This document shows positions 4,366 through 15,749 of a stretch of DNA of 64,000 nt, in pieces. Under the pieces are notes generated by a model. The model was not told where the DNA came from, made no database searches, and worked only from the letters and a program-made list of their open reading frames with translations. The position numbers and the translations under genes were made by a program. Within the stretch, counting starts at the first letter, position 1; every line of letters starts with the position of its first letter. Source of the stretch: a virus (lineage: Duplodnaviria > Caudoviricetes). The DNA is taken from positions 1 to 64,000 of the IMG/VR virus record IMGVR_UViG_2928716645_000002, one strand, 5' to 3'.

Positions 4366-4442
4366 TGGCAGCGCCAGTCGGAATCCAACCGATCACCTCC
4401 GGGTCCACAACCCAGCGCTCTACCCCTTGAATTATGGCAGCT
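4366..4442 (-). tRNA. tRNA-His(GTG)-like, possibly degenerate
   Basis: CTGGG TT-GTG-GA CCCGG; T-loop TTGGATT; bulged acceptor. Confidence 0.55.
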
Positions 4443-7137: not shown

Positions 7138-8445
7138 TCAGTCCGCCTGCTCGAGCTGGTGGATGAACCGAAGCACCCCCTCCGAGAAGCCGTCGATTTG
7201 CGTCCAGCGGCCGTAACCGACGCCGTTCAGGTTGGAAGCGACGTTGATCATATAGGCGTGACGCGCGACCGGATCTGGCACGCGATCCGAGCTCTGCTCG
7301 TCGGTGATGACGATCAGCCGGTCGTGCTGGATCCGGTTAATATGGCTTACCGCCGCGCCGAGCGCCGTTCCGCCGTGCGGCTGAGACCGTACGATTGCGT
7401 CGACACCGGCCATGCCGCGCCGCGGTGGAACCTCGACGACTTGGTTGGAGAACGTGAAGAGACGCAGATCGGCGTTCACGACGGCGCCGAGCGCGGCCGC
7501 GGCATCGATCCTCTTCATGTCCGACTTGCCCGACATCGCCCAATCCATGGATCCGGAAACGTCGATCAGGACGACCGTCTTCCCGGCGAGCTTCGGCATC
7601 TCACCGATAGCCGCCAACAAGGCCTGATCGAGATGCGGCTCGAAGCGCGGAGCGGCCCGCGCCGCAGCCACGTAACGGAACGGGAAGACGCGTCCGGCAC
7701 CGCGCCGCGCCACGATCGCATCCCGCACCAACGCCTCGTCGACGCCGGCCTGCGCCATGTTACGCAGGTTGCGCAGCAAGGCCAGGTAGCCGAGCTTGTT
7801 CTCGCGGAGCAGGCGCTCGAAGGCCTCCTTCTTGTCAGCGCCGCCGGAGAGCGCGACCTCCCAGGTATCCGGCGTCATCAAGGTGCGGTCCCGGACGCGC
7901 TTGAACAACGCCGATTGCTCGTCATTCGCCGGTTTCGGACGAACCAGGCGCAGGACGTCGCGGAGCTTGATGGCACCGTCCCGGTCGTACTTGGCCAGGC
8001 GGTACTCGTCGAACTTCTGGAACGCCCGAGCCAGGCCGTTGCGCATCTGCGCCGGCACCATCTTGCGGCCTTTGCGCCACAGGATGGCGAGGAGTTCAGC
8101 CATCTCGTCCGCACGCTGAATGACTCGCTCGACGGTCTCGGCGACCAGTGGATTGCCGGCGCCGGTCTTCGACAGCACCTCAAGCAGGAGCAGCGGGACG
8201 TGACGCAGGTTGTGCACCTCCCTGGCCTCGATCGCGATCGCGGCCAGGATCTCAGGCTTCACCTCCGCCGCGGTCTCGACGATTCGATCGGAGATCGCCT
8301 TGCCGTCCTCATAGAACTCGCTCTCCCAAAGCAGGCAGGACATAACGGTCCGGCGGAGCTGCTGCTCGGCAGAGAGATGGCGCGCGGCCGGTCCGCCCTC
8401 GTGGGTGAAAACCGGCGCCGACTTGTGTGGGGTGTTGAGACGCAT
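7138..8445 (-). CDS. rsr: Ro60/TROVE-domain RNA-binding protein (TROVE + vWA)
   Basis: THEGGPA, FDEYRLAKY, LRDVLRLVRPKP, TWEVALS, ALLRNLRN; vWA MIDAS DVSGSM and VITDEQ; AAGGAGG SD. Confidence 0.92.
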   Translation of the reverse strand: MRLNTPHKSAPVFTHEGGPAARHLSAEQQLRRTVMSCLLWESEFYEDGKAISDRIVETAAEVKPEILAAIAIEAREVHNLRHVPLLLLEVLSKTGAGNPLVAETVERVIQRADEMAELLAILWRKGRKMVPAQMRNGLARAFQKFDEYRLAKYDRDGAIKLRDVLRLVRPKPANDEQSALFKRVRDRTLMTPDTWEVALSGGADKKEAFERLLRENKLGYLALLRNLRNMAQAGVDEALVRDAIVARRGAGRVFPFRYVAAARAAPRFEPHLDQALLAAIGEMPKLAGKTVVLIDVSGSMDWAMSGKSDMKRIDAAAALGAVVNADLRLFTFSNQVVEVPPRRGMAGVDAIVRSQPHGGTALGAAVSHINRIQHDRLIVITDEQSSDRVPDPVARHAYMINVASNLNGVGYGRWTQIDGFSEGVLRFIHQLEQAD

Positions 8446-8467
8446 GTCGTCCTCCTTCGATTTGGAA

Positions 8468-8577
8468 GTCGCCATGACGGGATTTGGCAAGCGGCGAGCG
8501 CGGGATATGGGCCGAAGCCCGCTCTTTCATGGCAAGAAGTATCCGCGATCTATCAGCGCAAGCCCCGTCATGGCGAC
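8468..8577 (-). ncRNA. Y RNA-like gene 1 (no tRNA-like module)
   Basis: 14-bp terminal stem GTCGCCATGACGGG/CCCGTCATGGCGAC; GCTG...CTTGC motif shared with the neighbouring RNAs. Confidence 0.65.
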
Positions 8578-8584
8578 GGTTGGA

Positions 8585-8718
8585 CGGCATTGTGAGAGCG
8601 AGCAAGTGTCGGATGCGGTTTGCCAGACCAACTGGGCGTCGACCCCGTAAAGGCGGGGTCGATTGGAATCGAACCAATGAAGGAACCGCATACCTGCAGC
8701 GTCGCACTCACGATGCCG
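8585..8718 (-). ncRNA. YrlA-like Y RNA 2
   Basis: long terminal stem enclosing T-arm ATTGGTTCGATTCCAAT, closed acceptor-like hairpin and D-like AGTTGGT. Confidence 0.8.
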
Positions 8719-8725
8719 AAAATAG

Positions 8726-8884
8726 GCGCCCCATTGCAGGACCGGGCAAGTATCGAAACCGGACACGGTAAGCGCTCTACCACTGAGCTATCGGGATTTC
8801 TCCCGAGTGGGATTCGAACCCACGACCTCTCGCTCCCAAAGCGAAGTAACCGATTTCTGCAGCGCCGATCCCGCAATGTGGCGC
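8726..8884 (-). ncRNA. YrlA-like Y RNA 3
   Basis: long terminal stem enclosing permuted tRNA domain: T-arm GTGGGTTCGAATCCCAC, hairpin TCGGGAGAAATCCCGA, D-arm GCTCAGTGGTAGAGC. Confidence 0.88.
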
Positions 8885-8951
8885 GGGTAGATTGATGGCA
8901 CACCGAAGATTCGGCATGCCGGTTTCTTCGACAGTTATCCACCGTCGATAT

Positions 8952-9027: not shown

Positions 9028-9032
9028 ATGAT

Positions 9033-9111
9033 TGGTGCCCACGGCAAGAGTCGAACTTGCATGCTCCAGTTACGGTACTTGTGCTTCGTAGGCACAGCCG
9101 GTTACGTGGGC
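9033..9111 (-). tRNA. atypical tRNA-Arg(ACG) lacking a normal D-arm
   Basis: perfect acceptor, anticodon and T stems; 8 nt between acceptor and anticodon arm; 19-nt variable region. Confidence 0.65.
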
Positions 9112-9115
9112 GAAA

Positions 9116-9878: not shown

Positions 9879-10817
9879 ATGACAGATTTACCTTCACCGC
9901 GGCCGTACCGAGTTTTGAGCCTGGATGGCGGCGGAGCCAAAGGGTTCTACACGCTTGGAGCTCTCAAGGAGATCGAGGCGGTCGCCGGCCGGCCTCTGTG
10001 TGAGACGTTCAATCTCATCTACGGCACGAGCACGGGGGCTATCATCGCGGCTCTTCTAGGTTTGGGGAGCCGGGTCGAGGAGATCGAATCTCTTTATCGG
10101 CTGCGAGTCGTCGAAGTAATGGGTGAGATCCTACCTCGTAGGAAAACGGCCGCATTGGAAGCACTTGCACAAGACGTCTTCGGGGAACGCCGCTTTGACG
10201 CTTTCAAGACCGACATGGGCATTGTCGGCACTCGCTGGGACGACGATCGGCCAATAATCTTCAAGACCAACGCGGGGCAAGCGTTCACTGGCGTCGGTTC
10301 GTTTGAGCCGGGCTTCGGCTGCACTATAGCCGACGCAGTCGTTGGGTCGTGCTCGGCCTATCCGTTCTTTCTTAAGAAAATGGTGACGACTGGTCGTGGC
10401 GATCGGATCGAAGTCAGAGATGGCGGCTTCGTCGCGAACAATCCTACGCTCTATGCCGTCGCCGATGCCGTGGAATCGCTCGGGCATGACCGCGAAAACC
10501 TTCGGGTCGTCAGTCTCGGCGTGGGCGAATATCCCGCGCCGACACTTCCGGCCACCAGCGCACGGAAATGGATCAGCAAATGGCCGACGGTAAAATTCTC
10601 GCAGAAACTGTTGGAGATCAACACGCAGTCGATGGAGCAGCTAAGCCGTGTGTTGTTTGGCGGTGTGCCCCTTATCCGTATCAACGCGAAGTACACACAG
10701 CCCGAGATGGCAACAGACATGCTTGAGGCAAACATGGAAAAACTGGCCAAGCTTTGGAGTCGTGGACGAGACTCAGCGCGAGAGTACGACGGGGAACTTA
10801 AACGCTTTTTGATTTAG
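9879..10817 (+). CDS. patatin-like phospholipase (CBASS effector, CapE/CapV-like)
   Basis: LDGGGAKG, GTSTG and DGG motifs; directly upstream of the CD-NTase. Confidence 0.88.
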   Translation: MTDLPSPRPYRVLSLDGGGAKGFYTLGALKEIEAVAGRPLCETFNLIYGTSTGAIIAALLGLGSRVEEIESLYRLRVVEVMGEILPRRKTAALEALAQDVFGERRFDAFKTDMGIVGTRWDDDRPIIFKTNAGQAFTGVGSFEPGFGCTIADAVVGSCSAYPFFLKKMVTTGRGDRIEVRDGGFVANNPTLYAVADAVESLGHDRENLRVVSLGVGEYPAPTLPATSARKWISKWPTVKFSQKLLEINTQSMEQLSRVLFGGVPLIRINAKYTQPEMATDMLEANMEKLAKLWSRGRDSAREYDGELKRFLI

Positions 10818-10828
10818 GAGAATTGGAC

Positions 10829-11719
10829 GTGGCAATTTCGGAAGCACAACTCGAAACTTGGAACAAGCTAGGCCCTACAGCGCAGTTCACCTCCACCTAC
10901 GAAGCACTGCGAGACGTTCTGAATGATTCCAGCTCACCATACTGGCCAAAGAGCTTCGAGATATTTCTGCAGGGCTCCTACAAGAACTCTACCAACGTTT
11001 ATGGAGACAGTGATGTAGATGTGGTGATCCGCCTGGATTCGATCTTCTACACTGACCTTTATTTCCTCAGCGAGGAAGAGAAACAGCGTTACAATTCTCA
11101 ACGTACGGAGGGGAACTATAGCCTCGAGGAATTTAAAACATCGGTCATTTCTTGGCTCACCAAAAAGTATGGCAACGACGTCCAACCTGGCAACAAAGCA
11201 GTCTTCATCAAAGGCAACGGCACCAGCCGTCGAGACGCCGACGTTCTTATCTGCGCAAAGTTACGTCGCTACTATAGCTTCCCCGAGTTCGGGCAACCAC
11301 ACTACGTCGATGGAATTTGCTTTTTCTTACCCAGCGGCATCCGGATCGAGAACTTCCCCGAGAAGCACGCCGAGAACTGCACGACAAAGCACCAGGACAC
11401 GCGGCAATGGTTCAAGCCAACTGTTCGCATCTTCAAAAATCTTCGCAACACGATGATCAAAAATAAGATCATCGAAGACGGGCTGGCTCCGTCCTATTTT
11501 ATCGAGGGAATGCTGTATAACGTTCCCCCAACCAAGTTCGGTGGCAGCGAACAGATGAACTTCAAGGACGTATTGAATTGGCTGCTATCAGCAGATCGCG
11601 ACAAATTTGTTTGCGCGAACGAACAATTTAAACTTCTTGGCGGCGCGCATGTCACATGGCCTGCAGCAAACTGCACTCAGTTCTTGAATGCTGTGAAGTC
11701 CTATAATGACGCAGCTTAG
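10829..11719 (+). CDS. CD-NTase, CdnE-like cyclic nucleotide synthase
   Basis: LQGSYKNSTNVYGDSDVDV, DADV, IENFP..H, FKPTVRIFKN, PSYFIEGMLYNVP; AGGAG SD before GTG. Confidence 0.85.
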   Translation: MAISEAQLETWNKLGPTAQFTSTYEALRDVLNDSSSPYWPKSFEIFLQGSYKNSTNVYGDSDVDVVIRLDSIFYTDLYFLSEEEKQRYNSQRTEGNYSLEEFKTSVISWLTKKYGNDVQPGNKAVFIKGNGTSRRDADVLICAKLRRYYSFPEFGQPHYVDGICFFLPSGIRIENFPEKHAENCTTKHQDTRQWFKPTVRIFKNLRNTMIKNKIIEDGLAPSYFIEGMLYNVPPTKFGGSEQMNFKDVLNWLLSADRDKFVCANEQFKLLGGAHVTWPAANCTQFLNAVKSYNDAA

Positions 11720-11812: not shown

Positions 11813-11887
11813 TGGTGGACCCGGAGGGAATTGAACCCCCTACCCGCCGCGTGCAAAACGGCCGCTCTCCCGGTGAGCTACGGGCCC
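11813..11887 (-). tRNA. tRNA-Ala(TGC)
   Basis: GCCGT TT-TGC-AC GCGGC; G3:U70. Confidence 0.9.
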
Positions 11888-12393
11888 TTGAAGTTTATTC
11901 GAGATTTGTCCTTGCCGGCGGCGCGCCAGTTCGCCATCCACTGTGCGTTGAACGCGCGCTTTGCCGTCACGCACACTTCGCACCGACACCCAAGGCGGTA
12001 CTTTCCAACGCCATGGGGAGCGGATCGACCGGTAGAACCTGCGATCTGATTGCATGACCGATGCGAAAACGAGATGTTGTTCAAATCGAAGAACGTCGCC
12101 TTCGGATCGTTCGATCTCTGCCACGAGCTCTTGTGCTCGATGGACAGTTCTTCGACGCTGTCGATTGGCTTACTGCACCTGAAACAAACGTTCAGGTCGA
12201 GCTTGCACACCAAATCGAACATGATCAGCTTGCGGAGTTGGTGACAAGCTGTCCCGAACTTCATCCCGAGCAGTTCGTCCTTGGTATCGTTTGCTCGACG
12301 CCACGCCCCGCGGCGCCGTGTGCGCAGCTCTTCGGCAGGATCAAGATCAATGGGGACTTCCCCGCCGTCGGCGGGTAAACTGGAATCGGTCAT
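11878..12393 (-). CDS. HNH-like endonuclease
   Basis: CFRC...SIEH...NNISFSHRSCN; start uncertain. Confidence 0.65.
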   Translation of the reverse strand: MTDSSLPADGGEVPIDLDPAEELRTRRRGAWRRANDTKDELLGMKFGTACHQLRKLIMFDLVCKLDLNVCFRCSKPIDSVEELSIEHKSSWQRSNDPKATFFDLNNISFSHRSCNQIAGSTGRSAPHGVGKYRLGCRCEVCVTAKRAFNAQWMANWRAAGKDKSRINFKGP

Positions 12394-12522
12394 TTGAGCC
12401 GCTACCACGGTTCGAGTGATCAGGCTCGGCTCGGTGTTACCAGCACCGGGTCGAGCCGCCACAGAATCTATCTGAACCGATAGAGCTTGCAAAGCATGCC
12501 CGCGGACCCAGCGCGCGTGCCC

Positions 12523-12610
12523 CGATAGGTTTACAGTTTCGGCGATCGCGTTGACACTTTCGCCGATACGCTTGTCAGTTTGGCCGATCTGATTGACAGC
12601 TTCGGCGAAT
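12523..12610. repeat. about four degenerate 21-bp tandem repeats
   Basis: CGAT..TTGACAGTTTCGG-like units at 12523, 12543, 12564, 12585. Confidence 0.55.
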
Positions 12611-12611
12611 T

Positions 12612-12686
12612 TGGTGCCCGGAAATGGAATCGAACCACTGACGCGCACGCCTTCAACGTGCCGCTCTACCGCTGAGCTACCCGGGC
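12612..12686 (-). tRNA. tRNA-Phe(GAA)
   Basis: GCACG TT-GAA-GG CGTGC. Confidence 0.88.
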
Positions 12687-12721
12687 AAATTGCGAGTATG
12701 CGCAATTTCGCAAACTGAAGA

Positions 12722-12795
12722 TGGCGCGGGCACCGGGAGTCGAACCCGGGCTGCGAGAGTGGCACTCTCGCCGACTACCGTAATCTTTTGCCCGC
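12722..12795 (-). tRNA. tRNA-Gly(GCC)
   Basis: CGAGA GT-GCC-AC TCTCG; atypical D-arm. Confidence 0.75.
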
Positions 12796-13180: not shown

Positions 13181-13258
13181 TGGTTGCGTGGCCCGGGAGT
13201 CGAACCCGGTATTTCCGGCTTATGAGGCCAGCGTGGTGATCCATTCCACTCGCCCGCC
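13181..13258 (-). tRNA. tRNA-Met(CAT), initiator-like
   Basis: CTGGC CT-CAT-AA GCCGG; unpaired 1:72; ...CGCAACCA end. Confidence 0.7.
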
Positions 13259-13261
13259 AAA

Positions 13262-13352
13262 TGGTGCCGAGGCTCTCGCCTCAGCGGCGCCGACGTACGT
13301 CCGGCCTGGCGCTATTCGTTAAGTCCGACGACTAAAGATCGTTCGTGGCCGA
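13262..13352 (-). ncRNA. unknown structured RNA ending in hairpin + ACCA
   Basis: GCTGAGGC-GAGA-GCCTCGGC-ACCA; occupies a slot between tRNAs; 5' end uncertain. Confidence 0.4.
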
Positions 13353-13569: not shown

Positions 13570-14106
13570 TCACTTCTCGAGCTCGACGTCCCAGTACAGA
13601 TAGTCCGCCCAGGACTCGTGCAGGAAGTTCGGCGGGAAGAGCCGCTGGGCCGCCAGCAGGTCAAACTGCGTCGGCTCGAACGGCGCCCGCAACGGCTTCA
13701 CGCGAAAGCGGTCCTTGCGCATGTTGCACGGACTGCACGCCGCGACGATGTTCGTCCAGGACGTCTGGCCGCCGTCGGCACGCGGGATGACGTGGTCGAA
13801 CGTCAACTCCCCCCGGAGGTGCTGCTCGCCGCAATACTGGCAGCGGAAACGATCGCGGAGGAAGACGTTGAACCGCGTGAAGGCGACCCGAGCCGGCGGC
13901 CGCACGTATTCGCGCAACGCGATCACCGACGGCAGCCGCATCTCTGTCGACGGGCTCCTGACGACCTGGTCGTATTCCGCGACAACTGCGTGAGATCCCT
14001 TAACCACCGCCTTGACCGCATCCTCCCAATTAAAGAGCGACAACGGAAAATAGCTGAGCGGTTGGAAGTCCGCGTTGAGCACCAACGCGGGGCAGTTCTG
14101 AAACAT
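13570..14106 (-). CDS. HNH endonuclease (McrA/HNH_5-like)
   Basis: LVLNADFQPL, VFLRDRFRCQYCG, TFDHVIP, NIVAACSPCN; AAGGAGG SD. Confidence 0.92.
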   Translation of the reverse strand: MFQNCPALVLNADFQPLSYFPLSLFNWEDAVKAVVKGSHAVVAEYDQVVRSPSTEMRLPSVIALREYVRPPARVAFTRFNVFLRDRFRCQYCGEQHLRGELTFDHVIPRADGGQTSWTNIVAACSPCNMRKDRFRVKPLRAPFEPTQFDLLAAQRLFPPNFLHESWADYLYWDVELEK

Positions 14107-14125
14107 CGTCGCCTCCTTGCGTTGG

Positions 14126-14201
14126 TGGTGCCCCTGGGGTGGATCGAACACCCTCATCTGACCGTTATGAGCGGCCGGCCTTCCCATCTGGCTCCAAGGG
14201 C
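14126..14201 (-). tRNA. tRNA-Ile2/Met(CAT)
   Basis: GGCCG CT-CAT-AA CGGTC. Confidence 0.75.
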
Positions 14202-14624: not shown

Positions 14625-14713
14625 TGGTGAACGAGGCAGGATTCGAACCTGCGCGGGGCTCAAGGCCCGTGCGGTTAAGAGCCGCGTGCCGTCGACCGCT
14701 TGGCTACTCGTCC
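14625..14713 (-). tRNA. tRNA-Lys(CTT) with long variable arm
   Basis: CGCGG CT-CTT-AA CCGCA followed by GGGC-CTTGA-GCCC hairpin. Confidence 0.8.
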
Positions 14714-14715
14714 AT

Positions 14716-14806
14716 TGGTGAACCGGGAGGGACTCAAACCCCCGATGTGGCCGTGAGGCCAGCCGGATTAAAAGTCCGGGCCGTTCGTCGTTACGGTAAC
14801 CGGTCC
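14716..14806 (-). tRNA. tRNA-Lys(TTT) with long variable arm
   Basis: CCGGA CT-TTT-AA TCCGG followed by TGGCC-TCAC-GGCCA hairpin. Confidence 0.75.
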
Positions 14807-14949
14807 ATCTTCTCGATGGTTGCGGCGGCCAGCCGCTCCGGTTTCGTGTGGCGCGCCGTGACGGCGTTGCTCTTCGCTTTGGCGCGCGCGAGCGCGGCTT
14901 GGCTCTCGGCCGACAGCACATGCACGCCGGCGGGCAGCTTATCCGTCAT
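14791..14949 (-). CDS. small hypothetical protein
   Basis: GGGAG SD; MTDKLPAG... Confidence 0.45.
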   Translation of the reverse strand: MTDKLPAGVHVLSAESQAALARAKAKSNAVTARHTKPERLAAATIEKMDRLP

Positions 14950-15079: not shown

Positions 15080-15154
15080 TGGTGCGTCCGGATGGAATTG
15101 AACCACCGGCATCGACCATGTCGGGATCGCGCTCTACCACTGAGCTACGGACGC
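15080..15154 (-). tRNA. tRNA-Val(GAC), C33
   Basis: CGATC CC-GAC-AT GGTCG. Confidence 0.82.
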
Positions 15155-15158
15155 AAAT

Positions 15159-15293
15159 TGGATCGACGCGGACCGGTCTTCACCCGTCGCCGGGCGGCCC
15201 TCTGGGTGGCGCCCAGAAACCGATGTATGGGCCTGCTCTCGCGCACTGAGCCGGCGGCGTCGCGATCGCTGCCGGCGGCACGCGCCGCGTCGA
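15159..15293 (-). ncRNA. unknown 135-nt tRNA-like ncRNA (9-bp terminal stem + TCCA)
   Basis: TCGACGCGG...CCGCGTCGA-T-CCA; 2-4 nt from flanking tRNAs. Confidence 0.65.
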
Positions 15294-15295
15294 AA

Positions 15296-15370
15296 TGGTG
15301 CGCGCCGACGGGATCGAACCGCCGACACCCTGTGTGTAGGACAGGCGCTCTACCGCTGAGCTAGGCGCGC
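15296..15370 (-). tRNA. tRNA-Val(TAC), C33
   Basis: CCTGT CC-TAC-AC ACAGG. Confidence 0.85.
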
Positions 15371-15674: not shown

Positions 15675-15749
15675 TGGTGCCCGCAGGAGGACTTGAGTCT
15701 CCGCGCGTCCGCCTACAATGCGGCTGCTCTCCATCTGAGCTATGCGGGC
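15675..15749 (-). tRNA. tRNA-Thr(TGT), aberrant T-arm
   Basis: GCCGC AT-TGT-AG GCGGA; T-loop region ACTCAAGT. Confidence 0.6.

Follow-up and report, generated by a model that had tools for sequence, protein, structure and literature searches.

Provirus and tRNA array

The stretch of DNA analysed here (the window) comprises the first 64 kb of a 108-kb provirus record of IMG/VR. The structural genes of the provirus are of the siphovirus type: tape measure, central tail fibre J-type tail protein, major head, portal and large terminase. The last of these is 83-84% identical to the large terminases of two other proviruses, one of them residing in Bradyrhizobium embrapense SEMIA 6208, a sequence similarity that makes Bradyrhizobium the most likely host.

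An array of 33 tRNAs called by ARAGORN occupies the minus strand from 3.5 to 15.8 kb; at least two more are called by Rfam alone. CCA is encoded in every tRNA of the array and is followed by a short trailer of the AUU or UU type. Three tRNA-like genes on the minus strand, at 13185-13257, 15678-15749 and 4369-4441, were missed by ARAGORN and score 40.7, 45.5 and 28.7 bits with Rfam, respectively. The spacer 9028-9115 contains a CCA-ended unit with a tRNA-like acceptor stem. The tRNA-Lys genes with the anticodons CUU and UUU (14625-14713 and 14716-14806, minus strand) are 89 and 91 nt long, far above the usual length of a tRNA-Lys; in a related array, that of G254, both Lys tRNAs measure 76 nt.

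Protein-coding genes are interspersed with the tRNAs. The spacer that separates tRNA-Ile from tRNA-Lys(UUU) is filled by a 52-codon ORF (14790-14949, minus strand) that starts with MTDKLPAGVH behind an AAGGGAG; its final codons overlap tRNA-Lys(UUU), and its reading frame is recognisable in G254 as well as in G001, the closest relative. HNH endonuclease ORFs lie at 13570-14187 and 11878-12765 (both minus strand); the former, as listed, overlaps tRNA-Met by about 60 nt, and its true start is probably further downstream. Antisense within the array, a patatin-like phospholipase gene (9879-10817, plus strand) is followed by an ORF (10823-11719, plus strand) whose Pfam matches to nucleotidyltransferase domains are weak and below cut-off (SMODS, 22.2 bits against 26.5); the arrangement of the pair resembles that of a two-gene CBASS.

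Another IMG/VR provirus of the same size (G002, 108.6 kb, locus L104), with a terminase 84% identical, has zero tRNA genes. Within the phage group, the tRNA island as a whole is therefore accessory.

A CCA-ended element between two tRNA-Val genes

In the array, the spacer between tRNA-Val(UAC) and tRNA-Val(GAC) is occupied by a 135-nt element. The features of the locus are listed below in the direction of the minus strand, with the basis of each call in brackets; element position n corresponds to window coordinate 15294 - n.

15296-15370, minus strand: upstream neighbour, tRNA-Val(UAC) (ARAGORN; Rfam 60.3 bits)
15294-15295, minus strand: UU leader, from the CCA of tRNA-Val(UAC) to the element, with U at position -1 (sequence)
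15159-15293, minus strand: the 135-nt element (sequence and fold)
15285-15293, minus strand: P1 5' arm, UCGACGCGG, element positions 1-9 (perfect Watson-Crick pairing with 15163-15171; probability about 1.0 for pairs 2-8)
15240-15284, minus strand: P2 composite hairpin, element positions 10-54, 45 nt (predicted, probabilities 0.86-0.97)
15196-15233, minus strand: P3, element positions 61-98 (predicted, probabilities 0.5-0.6)
15182-15195, minus strand: P4, GCCCG-GCGA-CGGGU hairpin with a GNRA loop, element positions 99-112 (predicted, probability 0.37)
15172-15181, minus strand: 10-nt single-stranded joiner, GAAGACCGGU, element positions 113-122 (predicted fold)
15163-15171, minus strand: P1 3' arm, CCGCGUCGA, element positions 123-131 (sequence and pairing probability)
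15159-15162, minus strand: unpaired, discriminator-like U (15162) and encoded CCA (15161-15159), element positions 132-135 (sequence; the array tRNAs also encode NCCA)
15155-15158, minus strand: AUUU trailer, from the CCA of the element to tRNA-Val(GAC) (sequence)
15080-15154, minus strand: downstream neighbour, tRNA-Val(GAC) (ARAGORN; Rfam 62.2 bits)

A preliminary description of this DNA had placed at 15159-15293 a perfect 9-bp terminal stem followed by UCCA, 2 nt after tRNA-Val(UAC) and 4 nt before tRNA-Val(GAC). Read on the minus strand, its coordinates and letters are correct, and so are both distances when measured against the tRNA coordinates of ARAGORN. The two arms of the stem enclose an interior of 113 nt. 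Together with the single unpaired base and the CCA, the stem that closes the ends makes up an acceptor-type end, with 9 bp where a tRNA has 7. The boundaries of the element are punctuated like those of the tRNA units of the array: an encoded NCCA, then a trailer of the AUU type.

We shuffled the 141-nt spacer 300,000 times. In 177 of the shuffles, a perfect stem of 9 bp or more arose flush with the ends, and in just 2 it had NCCA behind it; the ends of the element are therefore beyond chance. No terminator-like site was found between the element and its neighbours in the run 15825-14126, where the sole match to the terminator consensus (15429-15413) lies within the anticodon arm of tRNA-Leu(CAA).

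In the predicted structure, P1-P4 meet in a four-way junction, and the 10-nt single strand leads back to P1. P2, whose 5' strand runs on directly from P1, is built from 7 bp (including two G-U pairs), GCCGGC/GCCGGC and then GCG/CGC with a 7-nt loop. P3 combines GGCCC/GGGCC around an 11-nt internal loop with a UCUGGG-CGCCA-CCCAGA hairpin. In this model, the joiner (15172-15181) and the internal loop of P3 (15217-15224, element positions 70-77) could form an 8-bp candidate pseudoknot, with a duplex energy of -8.6 kcal/mol computed for a single sequence, without covariation.

Two of the hairpins in the preliminary description recur in the fold: GCCGGC.GCG...CGC.GCCGGC has a pairing probability above 0.9, and UCUGGG/CCCAGA one of about 0.6. 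Its two other motifs are there as letters, but the fold disfavours both. The GAGA tetraloop would have a closing helix of just 2 bp, in competition with P2. The T-loop-like CGG-GUGAAGA-CCG has a probability of 0.01; it is excluded by P4 and costs 3.2 kcal/mol compared to the competing GCCCG-GCGA-CGGGU hairpin.

The minimum free energy (MFE) of the whole element is -70.4 kcal/mol, with a modest z of -2.05 relative to shuffles. The strand was called as minus from context, namely the CCA and all the array tRNAs lying on it, because the plus strand folds equally well: its MFE is -73 kcal/mol, so the folding energy is uninformative in this respect. On the plus strand, three of the pairs, the G-U ones of P2 (two) and P4 (one), would become mismatches.

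Elsewhere in the array, a second non-tRNA unit of 91 nt is found at 13262-13352 (minus strand), with a GAGA-capped 8-bp helix, ACCA at its end and a fold z of -1.1. Its ACCA is separated by 3 nt from the next tRNA-like gene. The counterpart in G001, about 88% identical, ends in GCACGA; the CCA is not conserved.

Comparison with RNA families

According to the preliminary description, the element follows the layout of neither tRNA, tmRNA nor Y RNA. ARAGORN and Rfam concur, as neither gives such a call: ARAGORN reports no tRNA or tmRNA at the element, and no tmRNA in the whole window. The Rfam comparison that had been proposed as a check returns no family for the element at gathering thresholds, and noise only at E values up to 10; within the same range, the tRNA model RF00005 and the tRNA-Sec models have zero matches on it. 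A tRNA cloverleaf, with its D arm, 5-bp anticodon stem and 7-nt loop, and T arm with a UUCRA loop, is absent from the element.

Searches for homologues and related arrays

The element is single-copy in the provirus and a singleton in every collection searched. Each of two isolate and two soil sequencing runs contains one near-identical contig and no second copy; in the two host isolate assemblies, a single contig matches at 80% likeness. BLAST revealed no homologue in five related proviruses or genomes. Among 401 genus genomes, none matched the element over its full length; among 401 family genomes, host tRNA-Val genes alone were hit, and the sequences downstream of them are unrelated to the element. 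There was no blastn match in phage and plasmid collections, and three exact or degenerate patterns of the element retrieved no homologue from IMG/VR. A covariance model, R1, built from the single element sequence and its predicted fold, found nothing in the records of related arrays or in the tRNA region of T4 (T4 70.9-71.2 kb). Some candidates were discarded: nine partial matches in genus genomes, falling on element positions 2-56, are GC-rich and coding-like and do not keep the hairpin, and one pattern match in IMG/VR (L030), located in tRNA-free, coding-like DNA, is attributed to chance.

Related arrays were collected with the 5' 28-31 nt of tRNA-Val(GAC), which are specific to the phage group. 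The order of tRNAs around the slot is identical in these relatives, and no tRNA is missing. The Val(UAC)/Val(GAC) slot itself is filled as follows.

G001 (closest relative, flanks about 90% identical): empty, CCA-AUUC and then the next tRNA
G406: empty, in the same manner as G001
L157 (metagenome contig): without insert
G254 (a Bradyrhizobium genome) and G405 (a provirus), identical there: 67-nt insert without CCA, fold z = -3.65; in G254, L156:1532-1598, minus strand

Homology of the 67-nt insert with the 135-nt element was considered and is not significant (p = 0.2). A further insert of G254, 150 nt long (L156:470-619, minus strand), lies between tRNA-Leu(GAG) and tRNA-Asp and has a perfect 19-bp closing stem with z = -5.93; the same junction measures 3 nt in the window. 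In G001, both the Val/Val and the Leu(GAG)/Asp junctions are short or empty.

By parsimony, the ancestral Val/Val slot would have been empty, and two unrelated structured inserts would have been gained in two lineages. Considering the 135-nt element here and the 67-nt and 150-nt inserts of G254, junctions in these arrays collect lineage-specific stem-closed modules. The preliminary description had named conservation beforehand as a test of its proposal, and the outcome goes against it: the element is not conserved, with an empty slot in three relatives and no homologue in the BLAST, pattern and covariance-model searches.

A putative product of tRNA processing

We tentatively favour the reading, at a probability of about 0.45, that the element is a lineage-specific, tRNA-unit-like insert, co-transcribed and released as a CCA-tailed stand-alone RNA. 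What bacterial RNase P minimally requires is an end-closing helix, a 3' NCCA and a leader left unpaired. A 7-bp acceptor stem is a major determinant for the enzyme (Chen et al. 2014, PMC4201824). Judging by its sequence features, the element offers a helix of at least 7 bp closing its ends, the 3' NCCA and the unpaired leader alike.

As no terminator-like site intervenes, the element should belong to a polycistronic tRNA precursor and would be transcribed together with the flanking tRNAs. We propose that RNase P cuts at its 5' end, since a helix with a 3' NCCA amounts to the minimal bacterial substrate; with the 5' strand of P1 continuing into P2, the enzyme could be presented with about 16 stacked base pairs. 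On the 3' side, the element would be freed by RNase P cleavage of the downstream tRNA-Val(GAC), after which exonucleases would trim the AUUU back to CCA. The expected product is a 135-nt, stem-closed, CCA-tailed RNA, unable to decode. Given the tRNA-unit punctuation and the lack of a terminator between the element and its neighbours, it is reasonable to infer a release by RNase P and 3' trimming.

The preliminary proposal of a new CCA-bearing ncRNA arising from tRNA processing is thus retained in part: membership of no known family, the unit punctuation and the missing terminator are in its favour, and the lack of conservation is against it. We argue for a gene-like unit, current or recent, over random filler, because the acceptor-like end of the element is non-random and its punctuation is that of a tRNA unit. 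Its most likely use, if any, would be that of a non-decoding mimic of the tRNA acceptor end.

Alternative explanations

Almost as likely as a processed RNA is a young, selectively neutral insertion without a function of its own, from which any released RNA would be a degraded by-product. The closing stem would then come from the origin of the insert, for example an inverted duplication, or from a need to fold on itself and so spare the neighbouring tRNAs, and the terminal CCA would be a duplicated copy of the target CCA-AUU junction. The element may be of this kind because it is unconserved, its slot is empty in the nearest relatives and its fold statistics are modest. Parsimony points to a recent gain, since the slot is empty in three related arrays, two of which carry another type of tRNA-Val(UAC), with a direct CCA-AUUC-tRNA junction in the closest relative. 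In another lineage, this slot took up an unrelated 67-nt insert; the stem-closed 150-nt insert of G254 sits where the window has a slot of 3 nt, and a short target duplication could account for CCA-UUU to the left of the element and CCA-AUUU to its right. However, a flush perfect 9-bp stem with NCCA is very improbable for random filler, the interior of the element contains several more stable helices, and no donor sequence was found in genus and family genomes, plasmids or phages. An insertion of a more specific kind, a miniature inverted-repeat mobile element lodged between the tRNA-Val genes, would explain the perfect 9-bp terminal inverted repeats, a possible short direct repeat at the flanks and the variable presence between relatives; yet it is the least credible of the origins considered, as such elements occur in multiple copies, whereas this one is single-copy in the provirus, appears on one contig per host isolate assembly (n = 2, 80% likeness) and has no full-length match in the 401 genus and 401 family genomes and none in the plasmid and phage collections. 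The sole candidate for a target-site duplication, CCA-(A)UUU, is also the generic punctuation of the array.

Descent from a duplicated tRNA gene, perhaps of tRNA-Val, which kept the acceptor end and acquired large insertions and substitutions, seems unlikely. Short colinear resemblances do exist: GCUCAG...AGAGC is D-arm-like, C-A-UAC-A-U recalls the anticodon loop of Val(UAC), CCGGUC-GCG...CCA-AUU resembles the 3' end of tRNA-Val(UAC) in the relatives, and the BLAST alignment to G001 reaches into the 3' end of the element by about 20 nt. The alignments are nevertheless no better than those of shuffles (local p not significant, gapped-global p about 0.1), the best-scoring tRNA is not tRNA-Val, the tRNA and tRNA-Sec models of Rfam stay silent up to an E value of 10, as described above, and the relatives otherwise have the same tRNA order with none missing.

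The array also encodes, on the same strand, a protein of 450 aa with TROVE and vWA domains, a Ro60/Rsr orthologue (ORF 7138-8490, minus strand). Y RNAs are expected beside rsr, bacteria often have several of them, and they pair their two ends; their features include a permuted tRNA-like module with T and D arms and, in the stem that binds Ro, a GNCGAA motif (PMC4201824). It is highly improbable, all the same, that the element is an extra Y RNA partnering the phage protein. A YrlA-like module (8771-8830), made of a T arm, a closed acceptor hairpin and a D arm, already lies directly upstream of rsr, scoring 43 bits with RF02553 (E = 7e-7), below the 69-bit threshold. The element is located about 6.7 kb upstream of rsr, with many tRNA genes in between, and about 6 kb from the module; the one RF02553 alignment that touches it reaches 13.8 bits, with the gathering score at 69, and extends into the neighbouring tRNA. 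The T arm, the D arm, the GNCGAA motif and a bulged helix in the stem are all absent from the element, whose sequence contains no CGAA, and blastn and nhmmer found nothing like it in 28 viral rsr loci. Because a YrlA-like RNA already adjoins the phage rsr, the link to Ro60 drawn in the preliminary description is weak. A second T-arm-like stretch is present near 8662-8683 (minus strand), within the 8500-8900 region upstream of rsr.

Discussion

Since T4, phage tRNA clusters have been known to hold small stable non-tRNA RNAs, whose function is unknown after fifty years. In the annotation of the T4 tRNA cluster, these are RNAC (species 1, 139 nt) and RNAD (species 2, 119 nt), both detected by Northern blot and with roles still unknown (PMC3014915, PMC9697503). 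The element resembles them as a non-tRNA unit of about 120-140 nt in a phage tRNA cluster, on the strand of the tRNAs, and, in the predicted folds, RNAC too has its two ends closed in a helix. It differs in that its CCA is encoded, its perfect stem is longer and no T arm is credible, whereas RNAC has a canonical T arm (CCGGG-UUCGAAU-CCCGG) and lacks an encoded CCA. No homology in sequence or structure is apparent with RNAC or RNAD (model R1 has no match there and the folds differ), and while the T4 species are detected RNAs, the element is known from sequence alone. By this comparison, we would regard it as an analogue, not a homologue, of RNAC and RNAD.

Other RNAs share single traits with the element. 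YrlA (RF02553) is likewise a tRNA-mimicking ncRNA, of about 100-135 nt, with paired ends and in genomes encoding Ro60/Rsr, but the element is away from rsr, has neither the module of T and D arms nor GNCGAA, and the place expected for such an RNA is held by the YrlA-like one. With tRNA (RF00005) it shares the acceptor-type stem, the single unpaired base, the CCA and the position as a unit of a tRNA array; in contrast to a tRNA, it is 135 nt long and has no anticodon arm, D arm or T-loop consensus. Non-canonical 9/3 'allo-tRNAs' were reportedly described by Mukai and colleagues in 2017. The likeness of the 9-bp stem and a possible 3-bp CGG/CCG hairpin to these is superficial: two bases stand between the putative T stem and the acceptor strand, and the probability of the T-like hairpin, given above, is 0.01. 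Finally, the 3' external transcribed spacer of glyW-cysT-leuZ is said, after work by Lalaouna and colleagues in 2015, to act as an sRNA sponge. It would have in common with the element that an RNA is freed as a by-product of polycistronic tRNA processing; spacers of this type differ in being short, in base-pairing with sRNAs and in showing no mimicry of an acceptor end.

It is conceivable, if quite improbable, that the element serves as a phage-made decoy of the acceptor end: a stable, non-decoding RNA with a CCA tail would soak up host anti-phage enzymes that attack or modify tRNA 3' ends, or compete for RNase P or the CCA-adding enzyme, as an interchangeable cassette in a 'tRNA-protection island'. 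If this were true, the island would unite about 35 tRNAs, Ro60 with Y RNAs and other tRNA mimics, and related prophages would differ through rapid gain and loss of its cassettes.

If the element is a real processed RNA, the RNAs of phage tRNA clusters would gain a form in which nothing but the stem-plus-CCA end is retained, and such units would turn over fast between close prophages, as expected of cargo in an arms race of phage and host over tRNAs. If it is instead a young neutral insert, the junctions of these arrays would still be hot spots for stem-closed insertions.
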